IMG/VR virus record: IMGVR_UViG_3300034524_000090
Location: 32,001 to 96,000 of that record
Reading direction: 5' to 3' (one strand)
Length of the DNA stretch: 64,000 nucleotides
DNA from: a virus
Shown here one piece after another: positions 32,981 to 63,421 of the stretch; position 1 is the first letter of the stretch, and each line of letters opens with the position of its first letter. The notes beneath the pieces were generated by a model. That model was not told where the DNA came from and ran no database searches. It saw nothing but the letters and a program-made list of their open reading frames with translations. Made by a program: the position numbers and the translations under genes.

Positions 32981-34999
32981 TTCCTTAATCCAGACCGTGT
33001 TTCCATGCCCGATATAGATGTAGACATCGAAGAAACTCGCCGTGGTGAGGTAATACAATATTTATACGACAAATACGGCACTGATAAAGTATGTCACATA
33101 GGCACTTACGGCACTTTAAGCCTAAAAGCAGTTATTAAAGACGTAGCTAGGGCTTTAGATATTAGTTTTGAAATCGTTAATAATATAACCAAAAATATTC
33201 CTGATGAAATAGAAAGTATAACAGATATAGAACAAAGTGATCTTATAATTCAGATTGATAACCTTTTAGGTGAAGAAAAGCGTAAACAACTTTTAAGCAT
33301 TGCCAAAATCTTATATGATTTAAAACGTCATCCAAGTATTCATGCAGCTGGTGTGGTTCTATCTCCTATTCCACTTGATCAGATTGTGCCTGTACGGATT
33401 CAGGATGGAGATATTGTTACTCAATGGGAAATGGAAGATATTGAACATATAGGGCTAATTAAGTTTGACTTACTTGGCTTGCGAACTCTTAGCGTTGTAG
33501 AAGAATGTGTTAAAATGTGTAACATTGATCTTGACCAAATATCTTTTGAAGATGAAAAGGCGTGGGAACTAATTAGAAATGGTAGCACAATAGGATGTTT
33601 TCAGTTTGAGTCGCCTGGGATTAGAAAATTATTGAGGGATATGCAGGCTTCTACGTTTGAGGATTTAGTGGCAATTAATGCTTTATATCGCCCAGGGCCG
33701 CTTAACGCTAAAGATGAACAAGGCAAAACTATGGTAGAGCATTATGTAGATAGAAAATTAGGTTTTGAACCTGTAGAGTATGATCATCCTTTGTTGGAAT
33801 CAATATTAAAAAATACGTTCGGCATTATAGTTTACCAGGAACAACTGATGGAAATAGCCAAGGTTTTAGCAGGTTATACAATGTCAGAGGCAGATGAACT
33901 CCGCAAAGGCGTGGCAAAGAAAAAAACCGATATTGTTGTTCATCATCATCAAAAGTTTGTGGAAGGGTGTGTAAAAAATGGTATTAAACAAGACGTAGCT
34001 GAAAATATTTGGGGGCAGATAGAAACGTTCGCCGAATACGGCTTTAACCGCTCGCACAGTTGTTCGTATTCTTATCTCTCTTATTTTACTGCTTACTTGA
34101 AAGCCAACTATCCTTTACAGTATATGACTTGTGTGCTTAATTCGATTATAGATAAGCAGGATAAGATAGCCTATTATCTGCAAGAATGTTTACGTATGGG
34201 ATTAAAAATTTTACCGCCTGATATAAATAAGAGCTATTTTAACTTTAGTTTGGAAGGTGATGCTATTCGTTACGGCTTAGGCGCAATCAAAAAGGTTTCA
34301 TCGCAGTTTGTAGACGTATTAGTTAAAGAACGCCAGAAAGACCCTATTAGATCTCTGAAGGATTTAATTATAAGAATTAATCGTTCTGTAATGCGTAAAG
34401 ATCTCTTAATCAACCTTATTTTGGCAGGAACTTTAGATAGTATAGAGCCTTATACCAATAAATCTGCTCTATGCCAAACTGTAGAGGATATATATAAGTA
34501 CTTAACAAAATCACAACAAAAATTAAAAAAAGGCAAGATAACTGAAGAACAAATTAAGACATATATAGAAGACTATTCTTTACCTGATAATTTAAAACTA
34601 TATTCTAAACAAGAATTAGAGGCTTATGAGAAAGATATTTTGGGTTTTCCTTTGACTAAATATCTAATGTCAACAGAAAAACTTAGAAAAACACAGTCAA
34701 AATGCACTAATTTGATTGCTGATGTTCCTGCTTTGAAAAACGGTAAACAACTTATAGTAACTGGTATTGTAGAAGGTTTAAAAAATTATCCAGTCAAAAC
34801 TGGTAAATACAAAAACAAGCCTCTATATACTTTTTTCTTAAATGACTTGGATAGTAGTGTTAAATGTATAGTTTATCCTTCACAAAATATAAAAGTTAAT
34901 TTCAAAGAGGGTGATTTAATTGCTGTAAAAGCTCAAAAAACAACAGAAGAAAATGGCAGGCCATTATTGATCATTAAACAATATCGTAAAATTTCTTAG
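32981..34999 (+). CDS. dnaE: DNA polymerase III alpha, exon 2 (spliced product 1059 aa)
   Basis: PDIDVD, HAAGVV, KFDLLGL, FQFES, YRPGP, YQEQ, YGFNRSH, C-terminal OB fold. Confidence 0.95.
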   Translation, partial: FLNPDRVSMPDIDVDIEETRRGEVIQYLYDKYGTDKVCHIGTYGTLSLKAVIKDVARALDISFEIVNNITKNIPDEIESITDIEQSDLIIQIDNLLGEEKRKQLLSIAKILYDLKRHPSIHAAGVVLSPIPLDQIVPVRIQDGDIVTQWEMEDIEHIGLIKFDLLGLRTLSVVEECVKMCNIDLDQISFEDEKAWELIRNGSTIGCFQFESPGIRKLLRDMQASTFEDLVAINALYRPGPLNAKDEQGKTMVEHYVDRKLGFEPVEYDHPLLESILKNTFGIIVYQEQLMEIAKVLAGYTMSEADELRKGVAKKKTDIVVHHHQKFVEGCVKNGIKQDVAENIWGQIETFAEYGFNRSHSCSYSYLSYFTAYLKANYPLQYMTCVLNSIIDKQDKIAYYLQECLRMGLKILPPDINKSYFNFSLEGDAIRYGLGAIKKVSSQFVDVLVKERQKDPIRSLKDLIIRINRSVMRKDLLINLILAGTLDSIEPYTNKSALCQTVEDIYKYLTKSQQKLKKGKITEEQIKTYIEDYSLPDNLKLYSKQELEAYEKDILGFPLTKYLMSTEKLRKTQSKCTNLIADVPALKNGKQLIVTGIVEGLKNYPVKTGKYKNKPLYTFFLNDLDSSVKCIVYPSQNIKVNFKEGDLIAVKAQKTTEENGRPLLIIKQYRKIS

Positions 35000-38304: not shown

Positions 38305-38823
38305 ATGGTAAGAAACTATGATTTTTTGCCCAAAAGGGTTTCCGAAGAGACTTTTTACAAAGTCTTGAACTTTCTTGCCAAATATGTCCAGGCGGCTGGT
38401 AAAACACGTATTACTCTGTCAATGGATGAGATTGCCGAAGAAACTAAATTGAATCGAGCTACGGTAGTAAAAGCAATTAAAGATTTAACAGAAAATGGAA
38501 TACTAACGATCAGAGGAGGTGGCGGTCGTGTTCCCTATGTTTATGACTATAATGGCCCTCCAAGTCAAATAACTTCTGAATTTACACTGGAAGCAAAGCT
38601 AAATTATGCCAAAAGAATGTTGCGCCTTTACTACAATGCCTTAAATCAATTTTATGATTTTGCTAATAGGATATTTGAAGTCGAAGAAAAAGATGATCAC
38701 TTTGTTGTTAAAGTCTATAAAAATGTTTATGGGGGTTTAGGTATAAATTGGGGAGATGCGAATTTATTAAGCGATTTTCAGGCACAATATATGGAACTAG
38801 AGGAAGAATTAAAACAAGATTAA
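38305..38823 (+). CDS. Winged-HTH transcription regulator (monocistronic)
   Basis: 'SMDEIAEETKLNRATVVKAIKDLTENGIL' HTH plus wing; own promoter and terminator. Confidence 0.8.
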   Translation: MVRNYDFLPKRVSEETFYKVLNFLAKYVQAAGKTRITLSMDEIAEETKLNRATVVKAIKDLTENGILTIRGGGGRVPYVYDYNGPPSQITSEFTLEAKLNYAKRMLRLYYNALNQFYDFANRIFEVEEKDDHFVVKVYKNVYGGLGINWGDANLLSDFQAQYMELEEELKQD

Positions 38824-38852
38824 AGATTTTACAATTAAATAAACGAAAGTTT

Positions 38853-38895
38853 TCCCCTGGCAAAATGCTTTAGCGGCCAGGGGATTTATTTTTTT
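38853..38895 (+). terminator. Intrinsic terminator
   Basis: tcccctggc...gccagggga + T-run. Confidence 0.75.
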
Positions 38896-38984
38896 ACCAG
38901 AAATTACATGACATACTTCTATTTTGACCCCAATAGTATTTAATAAAAAGTTTAATAAAAAAATGCACCAAAGGAGGCGGTGAG

Positions 38985-39836
38985 ATGCAGTTTATAGGTA
39001 TCGATGTAGGGCGAGACAGCGTTAAAGTAGCATCGGAAAATAAAAACTTTAAATTTAAAAGTAAAGTTAGCGAATGGAGGCCAAGGAGGTTGGTTAATGA
39101 TGACAAATATGAAGTCGAATTAGATGGACAAAAATATTTTATAGCGGATTTGGCTGATGAGGGTTTTTATGAGCGAGAAATGATGTTAGAGAGTAAAATC
39201 CATTTTGAAACTAAACTATTATTTTTAAGTGCTTTAGCTTTAACTGTAAACAATAGCAATGAAAAATATTGTATTGTTACTGGTCTGCCCGTGAAACAGC
39301 ACGTAGATAATACAAAAAAAGAATTAAACGACTTACTCAAAGGCAGTTATTCAGTAGTGATTAATAATCAGGCAGTTAATTTAAATTTAGGTGAAGTATG
39401 GGTTGTTCCTGAAGGTGCGGCTTCGGCCTGGGATTTAGTTTTAAACGAGCAAGGCAAACTTCTCCCCTCTCCCCTGTTAGTGGGTAAAGTACGAGTGATC
39501 GATATTGGTAGTAGGACAATTAATTACTGTACCCTGGAGAAACTGAAGTACATTGACCGTGAAAGCGGCACATTCGACTATGGCTGTGTGGTACTACAAA
39601 ACGCTGATATAAATAGTTATGAAGAGTTTGTAAGAAAGTTAATTGGGGATTTGTCAAAAGTATGGCTTACTTTAAAACCCACGGATACTGTAGTTATTAC
39701 TGGCGGCGGGAGTGTTTTGTTGCGGGAATACTTAAAACCACATTTTCCAGTTGTTTATTTTGGTGATGAGTTTAGCAACGCTAGAGGATATTATAAAATG
39801 GGGCGATTACGATGGAACAAGGAAAACGGAAAGTAG
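38985..39836 (+). CDS. parM: ParM/StbA-family actin-like ATPase
   Basis: GIDVG..SVK, VTGLP, VPEG, VIDIGSRTIN, ITGGGS, NARG. Confidence 0.9.
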   Translation: MQFIGIDVGRDSVKVASENKNFKFKSKVSEWRPRRLVNDDKYEVELDGQKYFIADLADEGFYEREMMLESKIHFETKLLFLSALALTVNNSNEKYCIVTGLPVKQHVDNTKKELNDLLKGSYSVVINNQAVNLNLGEVWVVPEGAASAWDLVLNEQGKLLPSPLLVGKVRVIDIGSRTINYCTLEKLKYIDRESGTFDYGCVVLQNADINSYEEFVRKLIGDLSKVWLTLKPTDTVVITGGGSVLLREYLKPHFPVVYFGDEFSNARGYYKMGRLRWNKENGK

Positions 39837-40099
39837 TATGGTTTAATATTGCAACTGAAAAAGATATTTTAAGTCATGCTGAAAATCAAAGTAATTTTTC
39901 ACGTTATGTTAAAAAATTAATTAAAGACGATATTACCTTTCAACAGACAGGGGTTGATCCTAAAGTGTTAGAGCATATTGAGATGATTATTGAAAGCCGT
40001 TTGGCAAATATTACAAATACGGTCTTACCTTTGCATGGTTCTTCTGTTAATAAGGAAATAGAACCCAAAATTTCCGACAATATTTGGGGATATTTCTAG
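39812..40099 (+). CDS. ParR-like ribbon-helix-helix adaptor
   Basis: 'KVVWFN...NFSRYVKKLI' RHH pattern, overlaps parM. Confidence 0.7.
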   Translation: MEQGKRKVVWFNIATEKDILSHAENQSNFSRYVKKLIKDDITFQQTGVDPKVLEHIEMIIESRLANITNTVLPLHGSSVNKEIEPKISDNIWGYF

Positions 40100-41091: not shown

Positions 41092-43377
41092 GTGTTTAAT
41101 AGGGTTAAAGTCATACCTTGGCAGGAGTTTTTTAAAGGGGAGGAAAAACTCCAAAAAACTAGAAAACCCCTTCTTCTCTCCCCTTTTTCCCCCTTTTTAG
41201 TGGTTAAAAATTTACCTTTAGTTTCATTTCAGCTTATACCGAATAAGCACACCAATAATGAAAATAATTTTATGCTTTTAAAAGCCCTTGATGAGCTTTA
41301 CACGGTTCCCCTAAACAGGATCAGTTTGACCCAAAAACAAATAAATTATACACCCCTGCCGTATTTTGTTTGGGAAGTATGGTTTATAAATAAAAAAATT
41401 TATTTCCTGGCCCATATTCGTTCTGATTGGCGGGAATATATAGAACACAAATTGACCCTGGCATGGCCTAAAATTAATATCAATTATATGGAAAATATTC
41501 CTGTTTTACCTGATGAAAGCCGTATTTTTAATGTCACCTTAAAAAACCATTTTATTTTCCCCCTGGGAGTCAATAGACTTTTTAACCACCTTGAAACCTT
41601 GCTTGAAACGGTTAGAATAATGGATAACGAAGATAAAGCGGTTTTACAGTTTATTATTACGCCTTTAGGCCCTTCTTGGCATAGTAAAGCGGAATATTGT
41701 TATCAGCAAATTCGGCAGGGTAATATACCGCAAAAAATAGAACTTAAAACGCCGTTTTATTATGCGGCGGTAGCTTTGGAGCCTGTTATGCGGGAACTGT
41801 TAGATTTTACTACTTTTCTTTTTGGCGACACAAATAGCCGTGAAAAAGACTCTAACCATATTAGAGAAAAGGTGAGTTTTTCACTGTATCAGAGCGTGAT
41901 GAATAAAATTAGACAGCCTGCTTTTGATACTACCATCAGGATAGGCGTTTACAGTATTAATACAAATAGGATACAGGCTATCAGTTATAATATTTTTGCC
42001 TTTTTGAACTTACTGGCGGGAGAACATAATGAGTTTAAACTGAAGCCTTTACCTGCCGAAACCGTTAAAAAATTAAACAACAGAAATCAGGAGTTTAGAC
42101 TTAACCATGATATTTTAACCCTTATGGAGTTAAATAAGCTGATTTTGTTACCTAATCTGGCTTTACAAAATGAATATAAAGAGATCGAAAAGGTAAGTAA
42201 GCACGAGGTAGTTTTGCCTAAAATTTTGACTCAGGGAGGGCTTTTAATCGGCCATATGAATTACCAGAATGTCAGGCAGGAAGTGTATTTGCCTATTAAC
42301 AATCATGATGAGCTTTGTCTGCCTCATATTGTGATCGGCGGCATGGGCACAGGTAAAACTTCTTTTGGGGCCAATTTAGCCATAGAAGCCATACGGAATA
42401 ATATGGGGGCCATAATTATTGATCCCGCCAAGGGAGAAGCAGGCGATGAAATAGAACTGGCAGTGTCGAAAAACTTAATTAAAAGGATAAAATTCGGTCA
42501 GGAAATAGTTTGTCTGGACTGGCGAGAGGCTTTGCATGGTGAGAGGAGTAAAAATAGATTTGCTAACGAACTTCTTAATTTCTTTGAGGTAGCTTCGGAC
42601 GAGATAGGTTTTCAGACGATCCGTTATTTAAGGGCGGCGGCTAAAGCCGTACCTTCCAATCGTCTAAAAGATATTATTGAGCTTATGACCAACAGTAGTT
42701 ACAGAAAAAAAATAACGGCTAAAATGCGGGAGCAAGAAAAAGAGGTATGGGAAAATTTTAATACATTAAGCGATGCACGTCAGAATCAAATCCTGCATCC
42801 GATACTAAACCGTTTGGATATTATTTTAGGAGATGATTATTTAAGTGAATGTATGGAGGCCGAAGAGGGCTTAGACTTTGTGGAACTGTTAAAAACCCCT
42901 AAAGTAATTGTTCTTGATGTGCCTAAACGTGAGTTGGGTGCTGAAGCTGTAGATGTACTGGCTACTTTATTAATTACCAAAATTAATCTGGCGATGGTTT
43001 TAAGAAATACTGATTTTCCAGTTTTTGTTATTCAAGACGAGCCGCATCAGTACATGAAGAGCTACCGTATCTGGAAATCGGCGGCGATTGAAAGTAGAAA
43101 ATGGAAATTCAGTTTTGTATGGATGTTTCATGCCTGGGAGCAGTTGCCAAGAGATTTAATTAGTATAATCAGATCGGCTAATCCTCATTATCATTTATAC
43201 ACTTCATCAGAATTAACATATAGAGCTTTGGCTGAAGAAATAAAGCCGTTTGAAATACAGGAGGCGATTAATACCCCTACCCATTATGCCATTAATATTA
43301 TCAGGGCCAACAATAAGACTTTAACACCTTTTATGGCGAAGATGCTTCCACCTCCTTCTAAAAGAAAAAGGGGTTAA
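41092..43377 (+). CDS. VirB4/VirD4/HerA-FtsK superfamily ATPase
   Basis: Walker A GGMGTGKT, IIDPAKG, Walker B VIQDEPHQ, ESRKW. Confidence 0.8.
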   Translation: MFNRVKVIPWQEFFKGEEKLQKTRKPLLLSPFSPFLVVKNLPLVSFQLIPNKHTNNENNFMLLKALDELYTVPLNRISLTQKQINYTPLPYFVWEVWFINKKIYFLAHIRSDWREYIEHKLTLAWPKININYMENIPVLPDESRIFNVTLKNHFIFPLGVNRLFNHLETLLETVRIMDNEDKAVLQFIITPLGPSWHSKAEYCYQQIRQGNIPQKIELKTPFYYAAVALEPVMRELLDFTTFLFGDTNSREKDSNHIREKVSFSLYQSVMNKIRQPAFDTTIRIGVYSINTNRIQAISYNIFAFLNLLAGEHNEFKLKPLPAETVKKLNNRNQEFRLNHDILTLMELNKLILLPNLALQNEYKEIEKVSKHEVVLPKILTQGGLLIGHMNYQNVRQEVYLPINNHDELCLPHIVIGGMGTGKTSFGANLAIEAIRNNMGAIIIDPAKGEAGDEIELAVSKNLIKRIKFGQEIVCLDWREALHGERSKNRFANELLNFFEVASDEIGFQTIRYLRAAAKAVPSNRLKDIIELMTNSSYRKKITAKMREQEKEVWENFNTLSDARQNQILHPILNRLDIILGDDYLSECMEAEEGLDFVELLKTPKVIVLDVPKRELGAEAVDVLATLLITKINLAMVLRNTDFPVFVIQDEPHQYMKSYRIWKSAAIESRKWKFSFVWMFHAWEQLPRDLISIIRSANPHYHLYTSSELTYRALAEEIKPFEIQEAINTPTHYAINIIRANNKTLTPFMAKMLPPPSKRKRG

Positions 43378-43388
43378 CCCCCCTGTTT

Positions 43389-44300
43389 TTATATATTCCT
43401 GATTCTTTTGCGTGAAAACATTCGTTGAACAACGCTGGCTGTAGTATGTTTGTCTTTTATGTCCTGCTCAACCAGATGAACATATTTGATAGCCATCTCT
43501 AAGCCAGAATGTCCAAGTAAATAACGTAAGGAGTGGATGTCACCACCGCCACGTAAGAATTCTGTAGCGGCTATATGCCTTAAACTGTAGGCGTTTATTT
43601 TTAAACCTAGTTTTCGGCTGTATTTTTGTAATTTATGGTTCCATGAAGTTTCCAGCATAGGTTGTCCATCTTGGTTGCAGAAAACAGGTGAGTGGAGCCA
43701 TTCCCTGGGTCTAACTGCCAGGAGTTTATTTAGTGCTTCGGCGGTAACGGGCGTAATGGGCAGGATGCGGGTTGTTCTGGTTTTGGAAATTTCGGCCCTG
43801 ACGGTTACGGTAAGATTTTTGAGATCAATATCGGCTGGTATAAGCTGTAATGCTTCGCTTGGTCTGATGGCCGTATCTAAAGTTAATAGTATCAGTGTAT
43901 AATCCCTTAAACCCGCATAGGTTTTACGATCAGGTAGTTTTAGTAATTCTTGCAGGGTATCGGTATTGATGTTGATAAATTTTATTTCCGTTTTCTTTCT
44001 CTTAAATTTTTTTAAGGGGTTGTCGTCAATATATTCTTCTTCGACGCAGTAATTGAAAAAGGCTTTTAGATAGACCAGTCTTAAATTATAGGTGGCGGGT
44101 TTAACCCTTTCGGCCATATAAATGTTTATGGCTTCTTTCAGTTTGTCGGGCCATGCGTCTGGAAATCGTTTAAAAAAGCGTTCAACATGATTCTGGTAAT
44201 CTTTTAAAGTTTTTTCAGCTAGTCCTTGAGCCGTTTTATGCCAGATAAATTGTTGTAACGCCTGTCTCCAGTCTACCTTTTTTAGATTTACGCTGTGCAT
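43389..44300 (-). CDS. int: Tyrosine integrase
   Basis: TAIRPSEA (R), SKT (K), YSLRH, LGHS, KYVH (Y); N-terminal SAM-like domain. Confidence 0.93.
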   Translation of the reverse strand: MHSVNLKKVDWRQALQQFIWHKTAQGLAEKTLKDYQNHVERFFKRFPDAWPDKLKEAINIYMAERVKPATYNLRLVYLKAFFNYCVEEEYIDDNPLKKFKRKKTEIKFININTDTLQELLKLPDRKTYAGLRDYTLILLTLDTAIRPSEALQLIPADIDLKNLTVTVRAEISKTRTTRILPITPVTAEALNKLLAVRPREWLHSPVFCNQDGQPMLETSWNHKLQKYSRKLGLKINAYSLRHIAATEFLRGGGDIHSLRYLLGHSGLEMAIKYVHLVEQDIKDKHTTASVVQRMFSRKRIRNI

Positions 44301-44301
44301 A

Positions 44302-44340
44302 AAAAATAGCCTCCTACTTTTTCAGTAGAAGGCCATTTTT
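44302..44340 (-). terminator. Terminator-like hairpin containing the integrase RBS
   Basis: Minus strand aaaatggccttctact-gaaaa-agtaggaggctatttt, with the T-run directly abutting ATG. Confidence 0.7.
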
Positions 44341-44403
44341 AATAACAAAGGATTCGGTCTAACTTTTTCTTTTTTGGGGCCTATAAGCCCTTGATTTTCC
44401 TTC

Positions 44404-44451
44404 TGGTGCCTCAGGGCGGAATCGAACCGCCGACACGAGGATTTTCAGTCC
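44404..44451 (-). other. attP core: 3' half of tRNA-Phe(GAA)
   Basis: Minus strand ggactGAAaatcc-tcgtgtc-ggcggTTCGATTccgcc-ctgaggc-ACCA; no 5' acceptor strand or D-arm; about 100 bp from int. Confidence 0.9.
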
Positions 44452-44721
44452 GACTAATACGGCAAAAATCCTCCAAGGCTTGATATTGCTTAATTCGGCC
44501 TTCTACTGATTTTTTATTGACAGCGGATTTCCTTATGAAAAAAGGATTTTCTACTGTCGTAGATATATTATACGCCATTCCGACAAAAAATCCTTCTTGG
44601 TAGCCATATTTTTTTATCCACCCCCAAACCGATAGAATAAAGGATACAAATAAAAAAATAAAAAATAAAAATCGGCAAAGGCCAAGGGTCAAGATGACAA
44701 ACTAGATTAAAAAAGGGCAAT

Positions 44722-44760
44722 AAAAAAACCCCTTACGGGTGGTTATTCCCGTAAGGGGTT
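44722..44760 (-). terminator. Intrinsic terminator ending the early arm before attP
   Basis: 13-bp stem aaccccttacggg/cccgtaaggggtt, A-run on the left. Confidence 0.88.
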
Positions 44761-44775
44761 ATACATCTATAATAT

Positions 44776-45699
44776 CTAAGCGGCTAAAAGTTCATAAGTC
44801 TGATCCAAAAGCTCTGCGCCGTTAATAATATTTACAAAGTGGCGTTCCTTAAATGTCTTTGATTTTCTTAAAGGCTCTTTATGTGTAACATGATCTGCAA
44901 CAGCATTTAAAAAGCCCCAAGCAGTGCCTTTAAACTTCTGTAAATCAGGGGCTTTATCATAGCGATACAAAATATCGTTTCTTAGTCTTATTACGTTTTC
45001 TTTGGCTTTTTCGCTCATATCGTTTTTAGTTGGCAAAATAGTGTTGATAATCTCTTCTATATCTTTTTCTTTCAAAGAAATATTAACCATATTTTCAGCG
45101 GTTTTTTGTAGATTTTTTAAGTAAATATCAGTTAATTCTAATGTTCTTCTGGCTTCCTCTAATCGGCCCTGAATATCTCCTCTGTGAATTACACTCCAAG
45201 ACCGTTGAGCAGTTTTTAGTGCTAAATTTAATGTATTATTACATACAACACGTACTGGTGTTAATGCGACTTTTACTGGACTTTTGCCGTCATGACTATT
45301 AGTAAAAACTATATAAGGTATTGTAACATCATCAATAAGTTTTATTTCTGGTAAGCGGCCTAATAACCATATTTGTTTACCTTCTTTCAACGATCCTGCT
45401 GTTTCATATTTTAGTCCTTCGCCGATCAAAGAATCTGTAAAAACGAAGGCTTCTTTGTTTTGAATAATTTTGTAACGGTTGCTTACAATACCTAAAACTT
45501 TTCCATTATCGCTTCTCACGTTGGCCCAATAATTGGGCACTTTCCTTCCTTGCACATAAATTTCTTCAGGTATAACTTCCCAGTCTAAACCTGCTTGTTT
45601 AATCGCTTCTTCTGAAGTTGGGGGTTCATTAAGGATTCTACTCAGGCCATGCCAGGGCACTTCACGAACTGAAAACATAGTTTCAACTAATGCGCTCAT
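44776..45699 (-). CDS. DUF932 (TIGR03299-type phage/plasmid-like) protein
   Basis: 'VETMFSVREVPWHGL', 'YETAGSL..GK', 'NSHDG', 'TPVRVVCNNTL', 'GTAWG..NAV'. Confidence 0.9.
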   Translation of the reverse strand: MSALVETMFSVREVPWHGLSRILNEPPTSEEAIKQAGLDWEVIPEEIYVQGRKVPNYWANVRSDNGKVLGIVSNRYKIIQNKEAFVFTDSLIGEGLKYETAGSLKEGKQIWLLGRLPEIKLIDDVTIPYIVFTNSHDGKSPVKVALTPVRVVCNNTLNLALKTAQRSWSVIHRGDIQGRLEEARRTLELTDIYLKNLQKTAENMVNISLKEKDIEEIINTILPTKNDMSEKAKENVIRLRNDILYRYDKAPDLQKFKGTAWGFLNAVADHVTHKEPLRKSKTFKERHFVNIINGAELLDQTYELLAA

Positions 45700-45749
45700 T
45701 TTTATTTTATCCTCCTTGTGTTTTATTTTTTATGTTTAATTTTTGATTT

Positions 45750-46019
45750 TTAATTTACATTTATTTCGTGTATATATTTTGTTCCTTGTACTATTTGAAA
45801 TCTACAATGCATACACACAGGTTTGCCATAAAAAATATCATCAGTAGCATTGCCACAGAAAATACAAGAGTATTCATAGGGTTTTAATATAATTTGGTTT
45901 TTATCTATTATAAATTCTATCTCTGTTCCTTCTTCCCAATTTGCCGCTCTAACAATTTCAGGTGGCACAACTAATTTACCTTGTTTAATTGCACGTCTAA
46001 TATTAGTTTTTTTACTCAT
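45750..46019 (-). CDS. abrB: AbrB-family transition-state regulator
   Basis: 'RAIKQGKLVVPPE...IILKPY...CIFCG...GKPVC..C'. Confidence 0.85.
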   Translation of the reverse strand: MSKKTNIRRAIKQGKLVVPPEIVRAANWEEGTEIEFIIDKNQIILKPYEYSCIFCGNATDDIFYGKPVCMHCRFQIVQGTKYIHEINVN

Positions 46020-46022
46020 AAT

Positions 46023-46190
46023 TTAACAAATACCTCCTACGTGTGTCCAAGGGTTATAAATTTTAAATACCCAAATTTCTTTACCAGAATTGGTTTTTAT
46101 CCTTCCTGAAGGTATTCCCATAACTGCGTGAAATCCCATAGTTTTATTAGCCTTTTTTATTTGGCCCTTAATTTGTTTTCTATTTTTCAT
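46023..46190 (-). CDS. Small basic hypothetical protein (55 aa, not in ORF track)
   Basis: AAGGTG RBS, ATGA overlap with upstream gene; MKNRKQIKGQ... Confidence 0.5.
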   Translation of the reverse strand: MKNRKQIKGQIKKANKTMGFHAVMGIPSGRIKTNSGKEIWVFKIYNPWTHVGGIC

Positions 46191-46450
46191 TGTCTCACCT
46201 TCTTTAGTCTTTGTTGATGAACGGGATTAGGCTTATTTACCCAACCTCCTTCGTCTTCTCTATAATCTAATTCGCCACGTAATATTTTTGTTTCAGTTTC
46301 ATAATCAACAATTTCACCAGGACAATCGGTTGTCAACGAACCTTCAGCGAGCTTGCAAATTTTACACATTGCTAATCCACCTTCACAAATAGGACAATGG
46401 ATTTTCTCTATGCAATTACAATCTTCAGGCTTATAAAATATATGCTTCAT
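46187..46450 (-). CDS. Cys-rich hypothetical protein
   Basis: 'CPICEGGLAMCKIC..AEGSLTTDCPG'; AGGAG RBS. Confidence 0.7.
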   Translation of the reverse strand: MKHIFYKPEDCNCIEKIHCPICEGGLAMCKICKLAEGSLTTDCPGEIVDYETETKILRGELDYREDEGGWVNKPNPVHQQRLKKVRQ

Positions 46451-46493
46451 TAATAATCACTCCTACGTTTTTTCTTTGAAGTGTGAAGTAAAG

Positions 46494-46919
46494 TTATTTG
46501 TTTCTCTGGGTGGCTTCCCGATAAAGATAATACTTGCCTGCCCAAACAGCAAAATCATGTATGTCCTCTAGTTTGCCAGCCTCAAAAAGAGCATAAAACT
46601 CATCAGAACTCATCTTGTATTTGCGCTCATAACTTTGAAGTTGCTGTTCTAGGAACTTGATTATACTTCCCCGATCACCAGTTAATCGATATACAGTTCG
46701 CTCAAAGTCGTTATAGGACATCATCTTATCCTTATTAAGCCTAACTTTTACCATATTGTTCCACCCTTTGATGTTAAGCTTTTCGCATTTTAAACATGAT
46801 GCGTTTTCTCTTTGAAATTCGAGGCTTCCCCATGCTTGTTCTCTTATCTGCTCCTCTATTTTCCGCACAAGAATTCGAGCTTCGTTAATCCATTGCTGAT
46901 GTAAAAAACTGTTTGCCAC
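46494..46919 (-). CDS. Protein with C-terminal antitoxin-like (TumA-type) domain
   Basis: 'YERKYKMSSDEFY..FEAGKLED..DF..W...Y'; possible internal start at 46754. Confidence 0.55.
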   Translation of the reverse strand: MANSFLHQQWINEARILVRKIEEQIREQAWGSLEFQRENASCLKCEKLNIKGWNNMVKVRLNKDKMMSYNDFERTVYRLTGDRGSIIKFLEQQLQSYERKYKMSSDEFYALFEAGKLEDIHDFAVWAGKYYLYREATQRNK

Positions 46920-46958
46920 TTCGATCTACTCCCTCCACATTCTCTTTGGAATGTGTAG

Positions 46959-47147
46959 TTAGCGATTAACACTTTCTTCTAACTCATTTTCTAAATCGTG
47001 AAGATATATACTAACTCCAAACGCAAATTCGGTTACTTTGGGAGCACGTTCCTCCACCTGTTCTGCCATAGGTAAAAGTTCATTTAAATGTCTGCGTATG
47101 GTTTTGCACTTTTGTTTCATAAACCTATATTCATCTTTGGATAACAT
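46959..47147 (-). CDS. Hypothetical protein
   Basis: GGGAGG RBS; flanked by 20-bp repeats. Confidence 0.65.
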   Translation of the reverse strand: MLSKDEYRFMKQKCKTIRRHLNELLPMAEQVEERAPKVTEFAFGVSIYLHDLENELEESVNR

Positions 47148-47209
47148 AACAGTCCTCCCTTTTGCTTCACATCCTAAACATGATGTGTCTCATCGTTTGT
47201 TATGTGTAT

Positions 47210-47467
47210 TTACCTAAAAAACTCATTATAAAGCTCATTATATGCTTTTTCGTAGTTTTGAGGATTACCATCTCTTTTGACCCATTCATCATAGCAAGCA
47301 TCTACCTGCCAATGGAAATCAGACCGTGGATTGTTATTTGCATATGCTGATAGCCATATTTTATCTTTGGTTTCTTTAAACAATTCTTCTTTTGTCATTT
47401 GGGCTAGTTTTTTTAGATACAAAGATCTAGGTTTTCCATGATTGTCATTCCCGCTATATTTGTCCAT
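47210..47467 (-). CDS. Hypothetical protein
   Basis: AAGGAG RBS; flanked by 20-bp repeats. Confidence 0.7.
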   Translation of the reverse strand: MDKYSGNDNHGKPRSLYLKKLAQMTKEELFKETKDKIWLSAYANNNPRSDFHWQVDACYDEWVKRDGNPQNYEKAYNELYNEFFR

Positions 47468-47508
47468 TTCTTTTTTCTCCTTCGCATTTTCTTTGGAATG
47501 TGTTAATC

Positions 47509-47775
47509 TTAACTGCTGCTGACTGTAATATAAGCCTTATAGTTTTCAGGCAATTTTTGACCACAAATGGGACAATATGTGAACCTTATGTGCTCAGTAG
47601 TTCCACGTTTTGATACTCGTAATTCTTTTCCATTTTTTAAATACTGTTTTTTGGCAATCACAAACGGCCTAATATATGCCTCAATAACAAAATTTAAACT
47701 TACTGTAGCATTTCTACCATATTTCACATATTCTTTTGATAAACTGCTTGCTAATTCTGTTGCACAATTACACAT
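47509..47775 (-). CDS. Zinc-binding hypothetical protein
   Basis: MCNC...YCPICG. Confidence 0.65.
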   Translation of the reverse strand: MCNCATELASSLSKEYVKYGRNATVSLNFVIEAYIRPFVIAKKQYLKNGKELRVSKRGTTEHIRFTYCPICGQKLPENYKAYITVSSS

Positions 47776-47823
47776 TTATATTACCCCCATACATCTTAAT
47801 AATATTGTTCCTTTTTTATTATC

Positions 47824-48843
47824 TTAGTACACATAATGAGGTGTTTTTCCATCGTATATTATTTCTTCTTCTTGTTGTTCTTCCTGTTGTTCTTGTTCTT
47901 CTTGTTGTTGTTCAAGGTATTTTGTTAGAATTTCAATGCCTCTTGGGGTAATTTCACGTCCTCGACTGGTTTTTTTGATAAGCCCTAAAGTATACAGCCA
48001 GGGTTCTATTACTTCTTCAACAGTCGAAACAGGTACACCTAACAGGTTAGCTATACTTTTAGCGCCAACTGGTCTTTCAGCCCAAGCTAATTGCATAAGA
48101 TAAAAATAATCCCTATGTTCTAAACCCATTTCGTCTAATCCTAAGACCTCCATTGTTTCTAAGACAATATCAGGAGGTATTTCATTTGTTCCTTTTATTA
48201 CTGCCATATCAATAACACGGTATAAAAGATTTAAGGCTATTCGGGGTGTTAGTTTAGACCGTTTAGCAAGTTCAAACGCACCTTCAACACTAAGTCTAAA
48301 ACCTAATTCTTGTGCGGCAAGGGTGACTATCACACCGATTTCTTCAAATTGATAATCCTCCATTTCAATTATTAAATCAAACCTGTCCCGTAACGGCTTT
48401 GTTACATCGCCTAAACGGGTTGTGGCTCCTATAATAGTAATTATAGGTGTTCTGGCCTTTTTAATTTCATTACCTACTTTGACATCAATCATCCAATCTT
48501 CTAAAACTGTATATAATTTTTCTTCGACCTCTAAAGGTAATGAATGGATTTCGTCAATGAATAATATTTGTAGTTTATCATCGTGTTCAAAACTAATAAG
48601 TAGCTGAATTAGATCCTGTTCTGTACGAAGACTAGGCGCCATTACAACTTTAAATTCAGCTTCTAGTTCTTCAGCCAGAGCTTTAGCTAATGCTGTTTTT
48701 CCAGTTCCAGGTTTACCTACAAAAAGCATATGCGGGGGCACTCGTCCTGATAAGAGTGCCCCTCTAACAGCTAGTCGTATTTTATTTTTAGCTTTTTCTT
48801 GGCCTATATAGTAAGCTAAATTTTTAGGAGTATATAACTGCAT
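47824..48843 (-). CDS. ruvB: RuvB-like Holliday junction branch-migration ATPase
   Basis: YIGQ, GKPGTGKT, LFIDEIH, GATTR.G....PLRDRF, TPRIA, EPWL...GL...T.RGR. Confidence 0.92.
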   Translation of the reverse strand: MQLYTPKNLAYYIGQEKAKNKIRLAVRGALLSGRVPPHMLFVGKPGTGKTALAKALAEELEAEFKVVMAPSLRTEQDLIQLLISFEHDDKLQILFIDEIHSLPLEVEEKLYTVLEDWMIDVKVGNEIKKARTPIITIIGATTRLGDVTKPLRDRFDLIIEMEDYQFEEIGVIVTLAAQELGFRLSVEGAFELAKRSKLTPRIALNLLYRVIDMAVIKGTNEIPPDIVLETMEVLGLDEMGLEHRDYFYLMQLAWAERPVGAKSIANLLGVPVSTVEEVIEPWLYTLGLIKKTSRGREITPRGIEILTKYLEQQQEEQEQQEEQQEEEIIYDGKTPHYVY

Positions 48844-48846
48844 CAG

Positions 48847-49224
48847 TTAGGCCCCCTTTTTATCTTTTTTGTTGTTGCGTTCAACTTTTATAACTAATGC
48901 TTTTTCCTTATTATCCCAGGTGGCTAAATATTTTTTCAGCACTACATCAAAACTACTTAACCATTCGACAAATGTTCTACTAAAAGCCCTACCTGATCTG
49001 CCGTTATTTATAATATCTAGTTTCAAAGCACCCTCATTATCAGGTTTAAATTTTAATTCATTGGTTTCGTCATCAAAAATAGGTTTTAGTCTTATTGCAG
49101 ATTTTATATCGGGGCCTAAAGCACTTACAGCGGCTAAATTAAAATGTATAGCGCCTTTTGGAGTAATATTAATTGTAGGGTCTAAAAACCTGGTATAACT
49201 ACCGCCTTCAAATACGTGTTGCAT
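48847..49224 (-). CDS. Hypothetical protein
   Basis: AAGGAGGTG RBS before ATG 49224 (shorter than track ORF). Confidence 0.65.
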   Translation of the reverse strand: MQHVFEGGSYTRFLDPTINITPKGAIHFNLAAVSALGPDIKSAIRLKPIFDDETNELKFKPDNEGALKLDIINNGRSGRAFSRTFVEWLSSFDVVLKKYLATWDNKEKALVIKVERNNKKDKKGA

Positions 49225-49309
49225 TTTGGTTACACCTCCTTTGGTTTTTACTAGTATGCCCGTTTCTTCATCTAAATTATACATTTTATTTTCTCCATAA
49301 TCAAGAGTT

Positions 49310-50992
49310 TTATTTTGTACTAACATATTGTTTTAACACCTCACAAATAAATTTACTAACTTTTTTCGATTTTTGTTCTTCCAATATCGCTGAAGAAATT
49401 TCGGTTTTCTGTTGTAAAACCTGATAAATATGTTCGTCTATAGTTTCATTTCCTATCATATACCAGATATTAACAGTTTCTTTTGAGCCAATACGGTGAC
49501 ATCTTGCTTCTGCTTGTTCGTGTAAAGCAGGTATCCACATTAATTCTAAAAATAAAACATTACTTGCGGCTGTAAAATTAAGACCAACCCCTGTTGCACC
49601 AATACTTGCTATTAATAGCCTCTTATCTCTATTATTTTGAAATTCTTCAACTATCCTGTTTCGTTTTTTCATATTCGTATCGCCAGTTATAATTAATGCT
49701 TCTGGAAAATTTTCATGCAAGGTATATAAATTCTTTTTATAATGACCAAATACAACTAATTTCCCTTGCTCGTTTTCTAAAAAATTATTTATCCATTCAG
49801 TTGTCGCTTCTAATTTACCCCTTCCTGCTAACTGTTTTAAATAATTCAATTGCGTTAACGCTTCATTGTAGGTTATTTGCATAATTTTTCTCATATCATA
49901 ACCTTGCTGTTTGAGCCATTGAATAAAATCTTTTTCAGCAAGATCGTATTCTTCCCTGTTTGATATATCGACAACTAATGATGTTCTAATTCTATTAGGC
50001 AAGTCTTTTAAAACCATATCTTTTGTGCGCCTGATCATAATAGTTGCCCGTAGTTTTTTATTAAGTTCTTTTAAATTACTTGCGCCGCTATAATCCCACC
50101 CCCAAGGCTTTTGTTTTGCATCACAATATCGTTTAACATAATATCTGAAATCATTAAATTCGTGTGGGGCTAGTAAGTGTACTATTGACCACAATTCTAT
50201 TGGTTTATTTAAAATCGGCGTGCCAGTTAAGGCTAATATATGAGGAGTTTTTTTACCTAAAGATATTACACTTTTTGCCCGTTTAGTCCTTGTATTTTTT
50301 ATATAATGAGCTTCGTCCAAGATAATAACTTTTGGATTAATTTTTTTAAGTGTTTTTAGCCAGTAACTTATAATATCGTAATTGATAATTATTATCGGCT
50401 TATTTATATCAACTTTTTTTCGCCCCTCCAAAATAACATATTCATTATATTCCTCATCAGGTAAAACTTTTTGTATTTCTTTGGCCCAATTGTATTTTAA
50501 AAAAGCAGGACAAACGATTATAGCTGGTCTTAATTCAGGATGTAATTGTAACCATGCAAGTGATTGTGTTGTTTTCCCTACGCCTAGATCGTCTGTTAAT
50601 AAAACTCTACCCGAGCGTTCTTCAATTAAATACACGCCTGCTTGTTGAAACTTAAACAGCTCTCTTTTTAATACAGGTAATTCAATTTGTGCTTCTGTAA
50701 TATTAGAGCTTTGATATAGAGTGTTATATCGTTCTTTAAGGTTTTCAATTTCTTTATAAAGATTTATATCAACAGCAAAATCGTTAATAAAATTACTTAG
50801 TAACCTTATTGTGTCAAAATTTAATGGGGCCACCCAATTTTTAGTTTGTTTATTAAATTTACGCTTAGGCAGTTCTTTTACCAGTTCTAATAGGTGTTCA
50901 TTGTATTTGAAGCAAATAATTATATGTTTTTTATCGTCTGCTAGTTTTATACAGTTTTCTGGTTGTGATAAAGAAGGATTAAATAATTGCAC
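49310..50992 (-). CDS. SNF2-family helicase with N-terminal HARP-like domain
   Basis: 'FKYNEHLLELVK.LP.RKFN..TK.W'; DDLGVGKT, DEAH, LTGTP..N, GVGLN, QAEARCHRIG. Confidence 0.9.
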   Translation of the reverse strand: MQLFNPSLSQPENCIKLADDKKHIIICFKYNEHLLELVKELPKRKFNKQTKNWVAPLNFDTIRLLSNFINDFAVDINLYKEIENLKERYNTLYQSSNITEAQIELPVLKRELFKFQQAGVYLIEERSGRVLLTDDLGVGKTTQSLAWLQLHPELRPAIIVCPAFLKYNWAKEIQKVLPDEEYNEYVILEGRKKVDINKPIIIINYDIISYWLKTLKKINPKVIILDEAHYIKNTRTKRAKSVISLGKKTPHILALTGTPILNKPIELWSIVHLLAPHEFNDFRYYVKRYCDAKQKPWGWDYSGASNLKELNKKLRATIMIRRTKDMVLKDLPNRIRTSLVVDISNREEYDLAEKDFIQWLKQQGYDMRKIMQITYNEALTQLNYLKQLAGRGKLEATTEWINNFLENEQGKLVVFGHYKKNLYTLHENFPEALIITGDTNMKKRNRIVEEFQNNRDKRLLIASIGATGVGLNFTAASNVLFLELMWIPALHEQAEARCHRIGSKETVNIWYMIGNETIDEHIYQVLQQKTEISSAILEEQKSKKVSKFICEVLKQYVSTK

Positions 50993-51265
50993 TTAATCAC
51001 CTTCTTTAAGCATCATATTCTCTATACTTTTTATGTCATCATAACGGGCCATTTCTACTACAATAAGTTGTTCTAAGAATCTATCTTTGGGATTAATCGC
51101 TTCTACATACCATCTGCTTTTCTTTTTAGATATTTTAACTAAGTTAGGTTTATAGCCGTATTTTTGTAATATTTCATTTGCAATTTCGTTGATTCTTTGA
51201 CGCCGATAAAATAACGGTATATAGGCTTTTTTAATCTCTTTAGGTATACGTCCCAAAGCTCGCAT
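50993..51265 (-). CDS. Hypothetical protein
   Basis: GGAGG RBS, tightly packed. Confidence 0.6.
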   Translation of the reverse strand: MRALGRIPKEIKKAYIPLFYRRQRINEIANEILQKYGYKPNLVKISKKKSRWYVEAINPKDRFLEQLIVVEMARYDDIKSIENMMLKEGD

Positions 51266-51267
51266 AC

Positions 51268-52590
51268 TTATGCCTCCAAATATTTTGCAAAATGAAATTT
51301 ACCAAAAAGCAATTCCTTTACTAACCTTTGCCATTCCATTTCAAATTCTCTGGTGCTATCAAGAGTTTTTGTGTGTTTATGCAGAGCTTCATGTAATAAT
51401 GTCATTGTTACGTTTTCTACGCTGGTAAAAATTTCTATTGTTAAATAAATCGTATCCTTGATCTTATCATAGAAACCATCAATATTGCCACAATCAATTT
51501 TATTTATATAGCATTGTTGAGTAAGTTTTACAGGCTCTACTGGCCCTACAATTTTCTCTACAATATTTTTAGCAATCCTAAACATTTCTTTTTGTTTTTC
51601 ATCTAAACAACTAAATGGTATATCTACCTCATTAAATTTTTGTTCTATTATTTGTTGGCTATAGGGTACTCCTATACGTTCTAAAAATGCTTGAATTGCC
51701 CAAGGTAAATCCAATACCTGAAAACCTAAATATTCAGCAGTATTATCAGCTTTTGTATTATAACTTAAACATTTATTCTGGAATAATTTCATGACAATTG
51801 ATTTCCATAGTTCCCGATTTTGGGGCCATATTGATACTCTACTTTCGACATAATCGCTAAATTTATTTCTCATTTCTAGTATTTTTTCTAGAAAATATGT
51901 TATTACTTTTTTGCTTTGCGTTTCTTCTAAAGCGTTACGCATCATCTTTTCTAATTGTTGCATATCAACTACAGTCCGATCACGATTTTGAGCTTCTTTA
52001 CCAACTCCTTGAAAATTATAAGAGAATAATAAATTAGGCATCTCGGTTGCTAAAACACCATTAATAAAAACTTTTCCTCCAGGCAAACCGATAACAGGAT
52101 CAAGTTGTTTTATTTTTTCTTTCCGTAATTCTTTAAAATACTGTTTAGCCTGTTCCACTTCTTCAGGAGTGCATTCAATTTCAAACCTAGTTCCAACTTC
52201 TCTAGAAATCGATCTAATATTAAATGCTAAAACTTCACAACCCAATGCCTTAGAAAAGATTATTTCTGGTCTAATACGATAACCTACAGTATCTATAATC
52301 ATTTCCCTGCCTAATCTGGCTATAACCAGCATAGCCAATTTAAGTCCTTCGCCAAATTGTCCAATCAAATTATTATCGTCTCTTTTACTTGATTTGCCCA
52401 AAGCCAAATCTATAGTTGAAATACCAGGGCCATCATCTTCAATAATAAATTTATTTTTACCTCTATGAAAACGAATATTGCAATTGTATTTAGTTTTTGT
52501 GTCAAAGGCTTCTTGTAATATTTCTCGTAAAGCCTCTACTATTCCCCAATGAGGCACATATTCAGTAGAAATTGCAGTTTCAATACGCAT
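51268..52590 (-). CDS. GHKL-type ATPase fused to an HExxH domain
   Basis: 'WGIVEALREILQE..D', 'IEDDGPG', 'GKSSKR...IGQFGEGLKLA', 'GT'; C-terminal LLHEALH. Confidence 0.8.
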   Translation of the reverse strand: MRIETAISTEYVPHWGIVEALREILQEAFDTKTKYNCNIRFHRGKNKFIIEDDGPGISTIDLALGKSSKRDDNNLIGQFGEGLKLAMLVIARLGREMIIDTVGYRIRPEIIFSKALGCEVLAFNIRSISREVGTRFEIECTPEEVEQAKQYFKELRKEKIKQLDPVIGLPGGKVFINGVLATEMPNLLFSYNFQGVGKEAQNRDRTVVDMQQLEKMMRNALEETQSKKVITYFLEKILEMRNKFSDYVESRVSIWPQNRELWKSIVMKLFQNKCLSYNTKADNTAEYLGFQVLDLPWAIQAFLERIGVPYSQQIIEQKFNEVDIPFSCLDEKQKEMFRIAKNIVEKIVGPVEPVKLTQQCYINKIDCGNIDGFYDKIKDTIYLTIEIFTSVENVTMTLLHEALHKHTKTLDSTREFEMEWQRLVKELLFGKFHFAKYLEA

Positions 52591-52614
52591 TGTTGTATTT
52601 CCCCTCCTTAATAA

Positions 52615-52797
52615 TTATTCTTCCACTTCTTGATTAGATATTTCCCTGAATAATTGGCCGCACTTAGGACATTTAAACCAAGTACCCTTATATTCTAAGT
52701 CACCTTCATAATCACAAAAAGGACAATAAACAGGAGCTAAAGAAGAATAATCTTGATAGTTAAAGTTATCTGTAGTAGAATAATTAATTTCCAACAT
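52615..52797 (-). CDS. Zinc-ribbon protein
   Basis: CPFC...CPKC; AGGAGG RBS. Confidence 0.65.
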   Translation of the reverse strand: MLEINYSTTDNFNYQDYSSLAPVYCPFCDYEGDLEYKGTWFKCPKCGQLFREISNQEVEE

Positions 52798-53032
52798 AAT
52801 AATAACCTCCTTTGTCTTCCCAGTATTTATCTATTAGTTTTTTTATTTTTTGGATTGCCTCCTCTTTTGTATCTGCCCAATCTACTCCAAGAGTAGTATC
52901 GTCTTTATATGCCTCCCCTTCCCATTTACCAAGAAAAGGAGTGAATTTGCCCATTACAGGAGCTACCCAAAATTTAAATCCTTTATACTGATGATTTTCG
53001 CCCATAAAAAACTCTAAACATTTGCAAGGCAT
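52784..53032 (-). CDS. Hypothetical protein
   Basis: GGGGAG RBS. Confidence 0.6.
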   Translation of the reverse strand: MPCKCLEFFMGENHQYKGFKFWVAPVMGKFTPFLGKWEGEAYKDDTTLGVDWADTKEEAIQKIKKLIDKYWEDKGGYYYVGN

Positions 53033-53048
53033 TATTTACTCTCCCCTT

Positions 53049-53441
53049 CTATATATCCATTTGACAGATAAATTGTGTACCACAACGACATTCATAAGTA
53101 AAAACAAATGCGCCCTTATCTTTATTTTCTTTGGCAATATCATAATCTACAACATGCATATCTTTTGTTTCCCCACAAGCAGGACATTTTCTTTCAAAGT
53201 AAATATTGTTTTTATCAGTTAGTTTTTCTCTTTTCTTGGTCTTTTGTTTGGCTTTATCTTTTTTCATATCGGCTTTTGTTTTTCTGTCCTCATAACATTC
53301 TTTACATAATTTTACACTTGTACCAACTAAATAATATTCCTGCCCAACCTTTAATAAAGTTCCACACTGCCTGCATTTAACACTCTTTTGTCTGACAGTC
53401 TGTATTGTAGCATTATTATAATCCAAAACGGTTCTAGCCAT
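53049..53441 (-). CDS. Multi-CxxC zinc-binding protein
   Basis: CRQC, CKEC, CPAC, CRC; first gene after a sigmaA promoter. Confidence 0.7.
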   Translation of the reverse strand: MARTVLDYNNATIQTVRQKSVKCRQCGTLLKVGQEYYLVGTSVKLCKECYEDRKTKADMKKDKAKQKTKKREKLTDKNNIYFERKCPACGETKDMHVVDYDIAKENKDKGAFVFTYECRCGTQFICQMDI

Positions 53442-53481: not shown

Positions 53482-53510
53482 ATTATAATTCATAAAATCT
53501 TTATTGTCAA
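53482..53510 (-). promoter_or_regulatory. sigmaA-type promoter
   Basis: Minus strand TTGACA-17 nt-TATAAT. Confidence 0.85.
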
Positions 53511-61347: not shown

Positions 61348-61429
61348 AATATCTCCTCCCTTTGGTTATTTAAAACCCAATCCGATAGATATTATAGCAG
61401 AAAGTGAAGAGATATATCACTTCCGTTTT

Positions 61430-61831: not shown

Positions 61832-61876
61832 ATAAATCCTCCTCTTTTAGTTATTTAAAACCCAAACTGATAAATA

Positions 61877-63375: not shown

Positions 63376-63421
63376 TAATCTATTAAACCTCCCTTATTTT
63401 AATTAAACCCAAACCGATAGA

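Follow-up and report, generated by a model that had tools for sequence, protein, structure and literature searches.

The described systems closest to the locus reported here are the dif modules of Acinetobacter plasmids and the PeSL cassettes of T4-type phages, and the dyads of Cluster O mycobacteriophages resemble it in layout. The available part of PMC6449649 describes plasmid dif (pdif) modules whose sites are acted on by XerC/XerD and fall into two clusters by their central bases; there, and in the available part of PMC2958812, Xer sites have 11-bp arms. Exchange at PeSL elements is ascribed to homologous recombination over about 100 bp in the accessible portion of PMC2839356, and the accessible text of PMC4351075 presents the Cluster O elements as 17-bp dyads with invariant arms, found in more than 30 copies per genome and rarely involved in rearrangements. 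Here we describe a family of 20-bp sites in IMG/VR virus record IMGVR_UViG_3300034524_000090, a 119,804-bp phage contig of which bases 32001-96000 (64,000 nucleotides, hereafter the window) were analyzed; coordinates are those of the window unless marked "genome." The sites form an array with small genes at the far end of one minus-strand operon, and in related phages a deletion, a replacement and further breaks fall at them. We therefore consider it very likely that the sites serve as points of exchange, where co-circulating variants of the phage gain, lose or trade modules the size of a gene, and we judge them to be junction elements that channel module exchange, a kind already known.

Anatomy and copies of the sites

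A preliminary description made from the letters alone had reported four 20-mers and an 18-nt variant, and all five are present on the minus strand where it placed them (A, B, C and E, and B' below). The copies that it counted are real, but four more (D', D, F and G) had been missed, so that the observation is both confirmed and extended. In the order of transcription, the array reads A - p85 - B'B - p62 - C - ORF-N - D'D - p86 - E (ORF, open reading frame; aa, amino acids), and its parts, together with the flanking genes and the two distant copies, are as follows.

47509..47775, minus strand: 88-aa gene (p88) with a C-terminal CxxC, upstream of A; matches phrog_7033
47483..47502, minus strand: site A, class I (center CAAAGA), between the 88-aa and 85-aa genes; abuts an AAGGAG ribosome-binding site
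47210..47467, minus strand: p85, 85 aa, module gene between A and B'
47189..47206, minus strand: site B', 18 nt
47168..47187, minus strand: site B, class II (center TGTTTA), ahead of the 62-aa gene, with 1 nt between it and B'
46959..47147, minus strand: p62, 62 aa, ORFan, module gene
46936..46955, minus strand: site C, class I, separating the 62-aa gene from ORF-N; its 7-6-7 palindrome is perfect
46755..46919, minus strand: ORF-N, 55 codons with a GTG start, reading in frame through D'/D into p86
46802..46821, minus strand: site D', class I, its right arm weak; 2 nt are shared with D
46784..46803, minus strand: site D, class II, upstream of an internal ribosome-binding site and the ATG at 46754
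46494..46754, minus strand: p86, 86 aa, module gene with its own ribosome-binding site at ATG 46754
46466..46485, minus strand: site E, class I, its right arm weak; separates the 86-aa from the 87-aa gene
46187..46450, minus strand: 87-aa zinc-ribbon-like gene, downstream of E; retained in every variant aligned
genome 109377-109396 (outside the window): site F, class II, flanking a 223-aa ORFan
genome 108614-108635 (outside the window): site G, class I, flanking the same 223-aa ORFan

The sites share a 7-6-7 anatomy in which imperfect inverted 7-bp arms (approximately CRCATYN and NRATGYG) flank a 6-bp center. Only two centers occur, CAAAGA in class I (A, C, E, D' and G) and TGTTTA in class II (B, D and F), on the sense strand in 5/5 and 3/3 copies, respectively; the arms are more variable than the centers, and right arms range from GAATGTG to AAAAACG. 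The fixed centers are not a search artifact, because the five copies retrieved by their arms alone also show just these two. The sites had been called co-oriented, and here the palindromic arms are uninformative, while by their centers all copies do lie on the sense strand; the center of B, however, differs from that of A, C and E. The 18-nt B' appears, from its letters, to be a decayed class I copy with a center two bases short. Copies total eight to nine, of which seven lie within 1.05 kb and none at the operon promoter. Sites F and G, 30 kb from the array, enclose their gene in the order class II - gene - class I, which makes a third such unit.

Each of the five sites first described is located between the stop codon of a minus-strand ORF and the next GGAG-type ribosome-binding site, the placement that had been claimed for the four 20-mers; the distance from site to ribosome-binding site ranges from 0 to 18 nt. 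The sites occupy about half the bases of the four gaps, and some of them share identical stretches, of 9 nt (E/A), 14 nt (C/A) and 11 nt (D/B). As had been noted, the gaps show no promoter: no promoter-like site scoring at least 10/12 was found in any of the four. The idea that the sites themselves are promoters was rejected on the same grounds, there being no strong promoter match, and because gaps of 39-43 nt are too short.

The family stands well above chance expectation. The strict 20-mer pattern gives 2 matches against 0.04 expected, and TYCAAAGARAA gives 4 against 0.57 expected, a number reached in 0/100 shuffles. The 119,804-bp genome contains the exact pattern CRCAT-N10-ATGYG 5 times, compared with a mean of 0.13 and a maximum of 1 over 100 shuffles, and the same half-sites with a spacer of 8, 9, 11 or 12 give zero matches genome-wide. 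When a center plus at least 7/10 arm matches is sought, 11 places are found against 1.66 expected (maximum 5 in 200 shuffles), and 8 of the 11 are members of the family; the other three, in coding DNA, are probably chance matches. A genome-wide search for a dyad of another kind found none.

The enclosed proteins are mutually unrelated, as first described (best pairwise E-value, 0.27). Homologues of p85 were found in two phages, Bacillus phage P59 (58.5% identity) and Microcystis phage Mwe-JY13, in the latter between the YqaJ and RecT genes, and neither homologue has flanking gaps or the motif. For p86, there is a weak resemblance to the TumA antitoxin (35.6 bits, below the cut-off of 100), and the only homologues found, of 86 and 91 aa and 70-75% identity, begin at Met56 of an annotated 141-aa ORF, that is, at ATG 46754. 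Sites D' and D fall inside this annotated ORF; since the homologues start at ATG 46754, D'/D in fact precede a gene as the other sites do, and the 55 codons before that start represent a lineage-specific read-through. These codons (ORF-N) are probably a remnant or a fused module, and may be a module with a lost stop codon. Searches of phage records with p88, p62 and the 223-aa protein returned no match.

Natural variants and their breakpoints

The preliminary description had proposed looking in relatives for precise presence, absence or replacement of genes at the motif, and metagenome contigs gave a positive answer. Six public runs carry this stretch (five subsurface metagenomes and one oil-field metagenome, from three studies, one run perhaps being that from which the record derives), and contigs of four of them (X2, X4, X5 and X6) were aligned on 43000-51000. 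The clearest variant is an X5 contig of 12,220 nt at a depth of 41.6, in which 46469 is joined to 47487, with 1,017 bp absent and 9 letters fitting both sides. These 9 letters are the center plus three bases common to E and A, so the product is one hybrid site, which replaces five junctions and four reading frames of the window. On the E side (44675-46469), the contig has 2 differences in 1,795 nt, and on the A side (47487-49626) it has 131 in 2,140 nt, a disparity that points to a mosaic switch of ancestry at the site. We do not think that the joint is an assembly error, because a 9-nt repeat is far shorter than the 31-letter words used by the assemblies.

Replacement is seen in an X4 contig, which matches 46334-46478, continues with 415 other letters and then matches 47162-47270, so that 46479-47161 (683 bp) is replaced; the left break lies at the center/arm border of E, and the right one lies 6 nt past B. 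An X2 contig has the same right break at 47162, with 225 unlike letters. A second X2 contig follows 46215-46948 without a difference and then carries 220 unlike letters from the center/left-arm border of C, and an X4 contig has 255 unlike letters from 47502, the outer edge of A. The variants thus show a clean deletion between two same-center sites, a replacement with a class II site at one end and a class I site at the other, and breaks at C and A, which justifies the term "cassette-like" and supports that reading of the array.

Among the contig rows listed, the distinct structural breaks outside the tRNA piece described below fall at 45759, 49545, 46469, 46478, 46948, 47162, 47487, 47502 and 50683. 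Six of these nine are at most 6 nt from a site, or six of seven if the joint in X6 (45759/49545; side 21, depth 2.66) is left out, a weak joint that we treated as unreliable. With a margin of 6 nt at either end, the sites by our own calculation take up about 197 of the 8,001 aligned bases.

Relatives beyond these contigs proved hard to find. A blastn search of the region against phage records gave no relative, and in IMG/VR the RuvB-like and DUF932 proteins that neighbor the array had remote matches or none; an alignment of the 86-aa protein and the Xer-type protein of this phage found nothing there. A tblastn search of phages and plasmids returned only bacterial-type RuvB at about 40%, and a search of species genomes with the RuvB-like alignment returned 80 loci, all ordinary RuvB of at most 42% identity, the 70% Neomoorella homologue described below not being among them. 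The DUF932 protein gave two loci at 50% identity in metagenome contigs, both in unrelated elements without the motif. Motif scans of IMG/VR yielded single copies only, at 1, 5 and 10 loci, and the four that were checked all lay inside long ORFs; as single copies unrelated to this phage apart from one remote SNF2 match, they were taken as chance.

Possible routes of exchange at the sites

In the mechanism that we propose, one module would run from the middle of one site to the middle of the next and contain a ribosome-binding site and a single promoterless ORF with its stop codon, and the modules would all be transcribed from the operon promoter about 6 kb upstream. How modules are exchanged is a separate matter. 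We tentatively favor a conservative site-specific reaction by a tyrosine recombinase, a prediction from sequence to which we give a little less than an even chance. The crossover would lie in the 6-bp center and only like-centered sites would recombine, so that two direct class I sites would give deletion or insertion and a module between a class II and a class I site would be swappable but not losable. We infer such an enzyme because inverted arms surround a class-invariant 6-bp center, because there are two discrete classes of center, because three of the breaks are in or border the center and because the CAT-N10-ATG register is common to the dif sites printed in PMC2731167. Geometry and breaks of this sort are what is expected of core sites with overlap regions that must match. 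Candidate enzymes would be the Xer-type recombinase of the phage, its integrase or the XerCD of the host; the phage-borne ones, with the attachment core, are as follows.

43389..44300, minus strand: tyrosine integrase, 303 aa, 2 kb downstream of the array and behind the operon terminator
44403..44452, minus strand: attP-like core, a 3' piece of a tRNA gene, beyond the terminator
genome 6484-7338: Xer-type recombinase, 284 aa; 218.4 bits with the XerA model (cut-off, 220) and 214.7 with XerC

The Xer-type recombinase aligns with the solved XerA and XerD, with the Arg, Lys, HxxR, His and Tyr motifs in place, and by this comparison the enzyme is intact. Unlike the integrase, it has no attP to explain its presence. 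At the tRNA piece (44403-44452), contig depth rises to as much as 4,905 and loose ends lead into many bacterial tRNA-gene contigs, which fits an attachment core; the anticodon loop can be read as that of a tRNA for Phe. Adjoining the Xer-type gene, about 500 bp (genome 5950-6520) contain long palindromes with arms of 20-31 nt and repeats of the TATAAG/AGATCT type; this region could be the site of the Xer-type enzyme, an origin or a partition site.

Compared with pdif modules as they appear in the available part of PMC6449649, the locus likewise has small accessory modules in a row, short sites with a 6-bp center and palindromic inner arms, two clusters of sites by central bases, some units flanked by opposite types, and an Xer-family enzyme at hand; in both, relatives differ by having, lacking or replacing modules, and the breaks lie at the sites. 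The carrier here, however, is a tailed phage rather than a plasmid, only 7 bp per arm is conserved instead of the 11 bp that make up a 28-bp dif site, the modules are single promoterless ORFs within one operon, and the inner arm bases beside the center depart from the dif consensus; Xer action is here a prediction. A literature search for phage cassette arrays bounded by dif-like sites found nothing pertinent among the papers listed, which is a weak negative.

Engineered exchange between heterospecific lox or FRT sites offers another parallel, in that a module between two different centers is exchangeable but not excisable. The likeness extends to inverted arms around an asymmetric center whose identity would decide pairing, and the differences are arms of 7 bp against 13 bp, a natural array and an enzyme that is putative. 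In integrons, too, each site comes with a single gene that lacks a promoter, the cassettes are transcribed as an array from a promoter upstream, and the crossover lies at the site. Their attC sites are 57-141 bp long. An integron was rejected here, since there is no IntI, attC sites are much longer than these 20 bp and the array has neither an attI nor an integrase-promoter platform beside it; neither recombinase reaches the cut-off of 265 bits of the NCBIfam integron-integrase model, their scores being 114.8 and 39.1 bits. Of the non-attC cassette system first proposed, then, the cassette-like and non-integron parts hold, on the variants and on these scores, while a recombinase as its agent is unsupported.

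A number of points weigh against an exchange system of this kind. General recombination across the shared 9-14 nt would yield identical products, and neither a circular product nor a reciprocal hybrid site was obtained. Conservation is confined to 20 bp, with 7 bp per arm and the outer 4 bp of the would-be 11-bp arms unconserved, and the right arms of E and D' are poor. The Xer-type gene lies about 47-71 kb from the sites, beside its own palindrome-rich region, which may be its real target; given the actin-like partition gene of this phage, the enzyme may serve dimer resolution alone. As to the variants, every informative contig comes from one study (P2), and the count of breaks is a lower-quality sample, 24 loose-end rows and 80 pieces lying beyond the contig rows listed. 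Viable rearrangements are intergenic anyway and the sites make up about half of the gaps, so breaks could touch sites by chance. Finally, phage records, IMG/VR, plasmids, metagenome contigs and species genomes gave no relative with readable DNA, and the modules are therefore untraced to other array positions.

Recombination over short homology is nearly as likely as a tyrosine recombinase, and we regard it as a real possibility in its own right. Under this PeSL-like explanation, the dyad would primarily be a binding or regulatory sequence for a phage or host protein, and homologous recombination would use its 9-14 identical bases without a dedicated recombinase. The joints observed match products of recombination over the 9-nt E/A stretch, the C/A (14-nt) and D/B (11-nt) stretches are available as well, and the arms are short for a recombinase site; the phage also has a PD-(D/E)XK-type exonuclease (phrog_69), an endonuclease VII-like protein, an SNF2 helicase and a RuvB-like ATPase. 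In the portion of PMC2839356 available, T4-type phages show modular shuffling at repeated intergenic elements, which resemble the present ones in lying between ORFan genes of a variable region, in the indels and replacements of relatives at the elements and in leaving a hybrid element after deletion. The elements described in that portion, however, are about 100 bp long, with a sigma-70 promoter and a terminator hairpin, whereas here there are 20 bp with no promoter and no conserved hairpin, and homology of only 9-14 nt compares with roughly 100 bp. Short homology also offers no reason for invariant 6-bp centers in two classes with more variable arms, and no single-strand annealing protein was identified, two neighboring ORFs having matched no family. 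Of the 29 direct repeat pairs of at least 9 nt in the cluster, only intergenic pairs were seen to be used, a weak point because selection for intact genes could explain it.

Two further explanations would make the dyads regulatory. An array of operators or roadblocks, comparable to Cluster A stoperators, SPbeta repeated elements (SPBRE) or Cluster O dyads, would let a dimeric protein modulate read-through into the distal genes, with breaks intergenic because only such breaks are viable. Its appeal lies in the dyad symmetry and fixed spacing, the stoperator-like position between stop codon and ribosome-binding site, the AbrB-type protein encoded at the end of the same operon and the half share of gap bases, by which intergenic breaks would often touch sites by chance; Cluster O dyads and Cluster A stoperators are likewise short dyads between small phage genes and away from promoters, insofar as the accessible text of PMC4351075 covers them. 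We nevertheless consider it improbable, as the X5 crossover lies inside the shared center, two more breaks lie exactly at center/arm borders and the centers are better conserved than the arms, the opposite of a typical dimer operator. There are moreover only eight to nine copies, seven of them along 1.05 kb of one operon and none at its promoter, and they combine variable arms, fixed centers and breakpoints, whereas Cluster O dyads, in the same text, are rarely involved in rearrangements. A repressor-bound array of the L5 or SPBRE type would be expected to have many copies across the genome or to lie in promoter regions. SPBRE, which the preliminary description had named as its alternative, fit poorly: in the available part of PMC10516654, SPBRE sites lie in promoter regions and bind MrpR, whereas the present sites are inside an operon far from its promoter. 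Still less probable is an RNA element, in which mRNA hairpins would steer processing, stability or translation of each small gene. The sites are transcribed just 5' of ribosome-binding sites, and C and B fold at -6.4 and -5.8 kcal/mol; 4/9 copies, however, are unfolded (A, E and B' at 0.0, D' at -0.3 kcal/mol), the arm differences are not compensatory, with an A-C mismatch on the sense strand in A, the distance to the ribosome-binding site varies, and 44300-48000 has no Rfam match at E-values up to 1 save three weak hits outside the array. That variable distance of 0 to 18 nt also led us to reject translational operators, and T7-type promoters were set aside since no candidate for a phage RNA polymerase came to light and the sites occur in two places only.

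Genome setting and implications

The array belongs to a large, temperate phage whose genome is about 93% coding (in a rough gene set) and has a guanine-plus-cytosine (GC) content of about 33%. Genes of the window are on the plus strand up to 43377 and all on the minus strand from 43389 onward. The operon runs from genes for an endonuclease VII-like protein, a GHKL ATPase, an SNF2 helicase and a RuvB-like ATPase through the small array genes to those for an AbrB-type and a DUF932 protein. The first four of these, with a helicase of the SNF2/HARP type, lie upstream of the array and occupy 47824-53441. Two signals frame the operon.

53482..53510, minus strand: operon promoter of the consensus sigma-70 type, matching 12 of 12 consensus positions; likely the start of the operon that ends in the array
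44727..44760, minus strand: strong intrinsic terminator, closing the operon after the DUF932 gene

The host is probably a Firmicute, the sole grounds being GGAGG-type ribosome-binding sites and a homologue of the RuvB-like protein, at 70%, annotated in Neomoorella thermoacetica; despite the GC content of about 33%, this homologue may give a hint of the host lineage.

Several other features of the genome were observed in passing. The repeat TCTATCGGTTTGGG occurs on the minus strand at 44623-44636, 61376-61389, 61861-61874 and 63408-63421, in early intergenic gaps and often just 3' of a TATAAT-like box, with more copies past the window end at about genome 96250-100600. With at most 2 mismatches, the window holds 5 matches where 0.38 would be expected, four of the five being on the minus strand and in gaps, and the repeat may be a common leader or operator of early promoters. 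At 38305-40099, genes for a winged-helix protein and an actin-like (ALP_N) protein, followed by a small ORF, resemble a partition set of the plasmid type; the same phage carries an integrase and attP. A DNA polymerase III alpha-like gene at 30791-34999 appears to be split, the ORF list giving a 393-aa piece, a separate 256-aa ORF and a 692-aa piece; we take the start of the 393-aa piece to be a PHP domain and the 256-aa ORF to be zinc-ribbon-like. A 761-aa P-loop protein at 41092-43377 matches phrog_5156 (E = 3.8e-178) and no Pfam family.

Phage genomes are mosaic, and their small accessory genes often serve anti-defense or host takeover. The movement of such genes from one phage to another with operons left intact is mostly ascribed to rare illegitimate recombination followed by selection. 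In this phage, the joints are visible as a defined 20-bp site, with natural deletion and replacement occurring there. If an enzyme reads the sites, they would constitute a simple and portable means of in-register gene exchange with two orthogonal site classes, of interest both to phage evolution and to genome engineering. In its most specific form, this would mean a tailed phage with natural cassette exchange in which a phage or host Xer-type recombinase acts on minimal 7-6-7 sites with two mutually incompatible centers. We hold that version to be rather doubtful; if true, single promoterless genes could be inserted, deleted or swapped in register with an operon, and the locus would be to phages what dif modules are to plasmids, and a counterpart of the engineered exchange between heterospecific lox sites. 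Should no enzyme take part, the array would be a compact example of very short conserved dyads that channel module exchange, extending the PeSL idea to a temperate phage.

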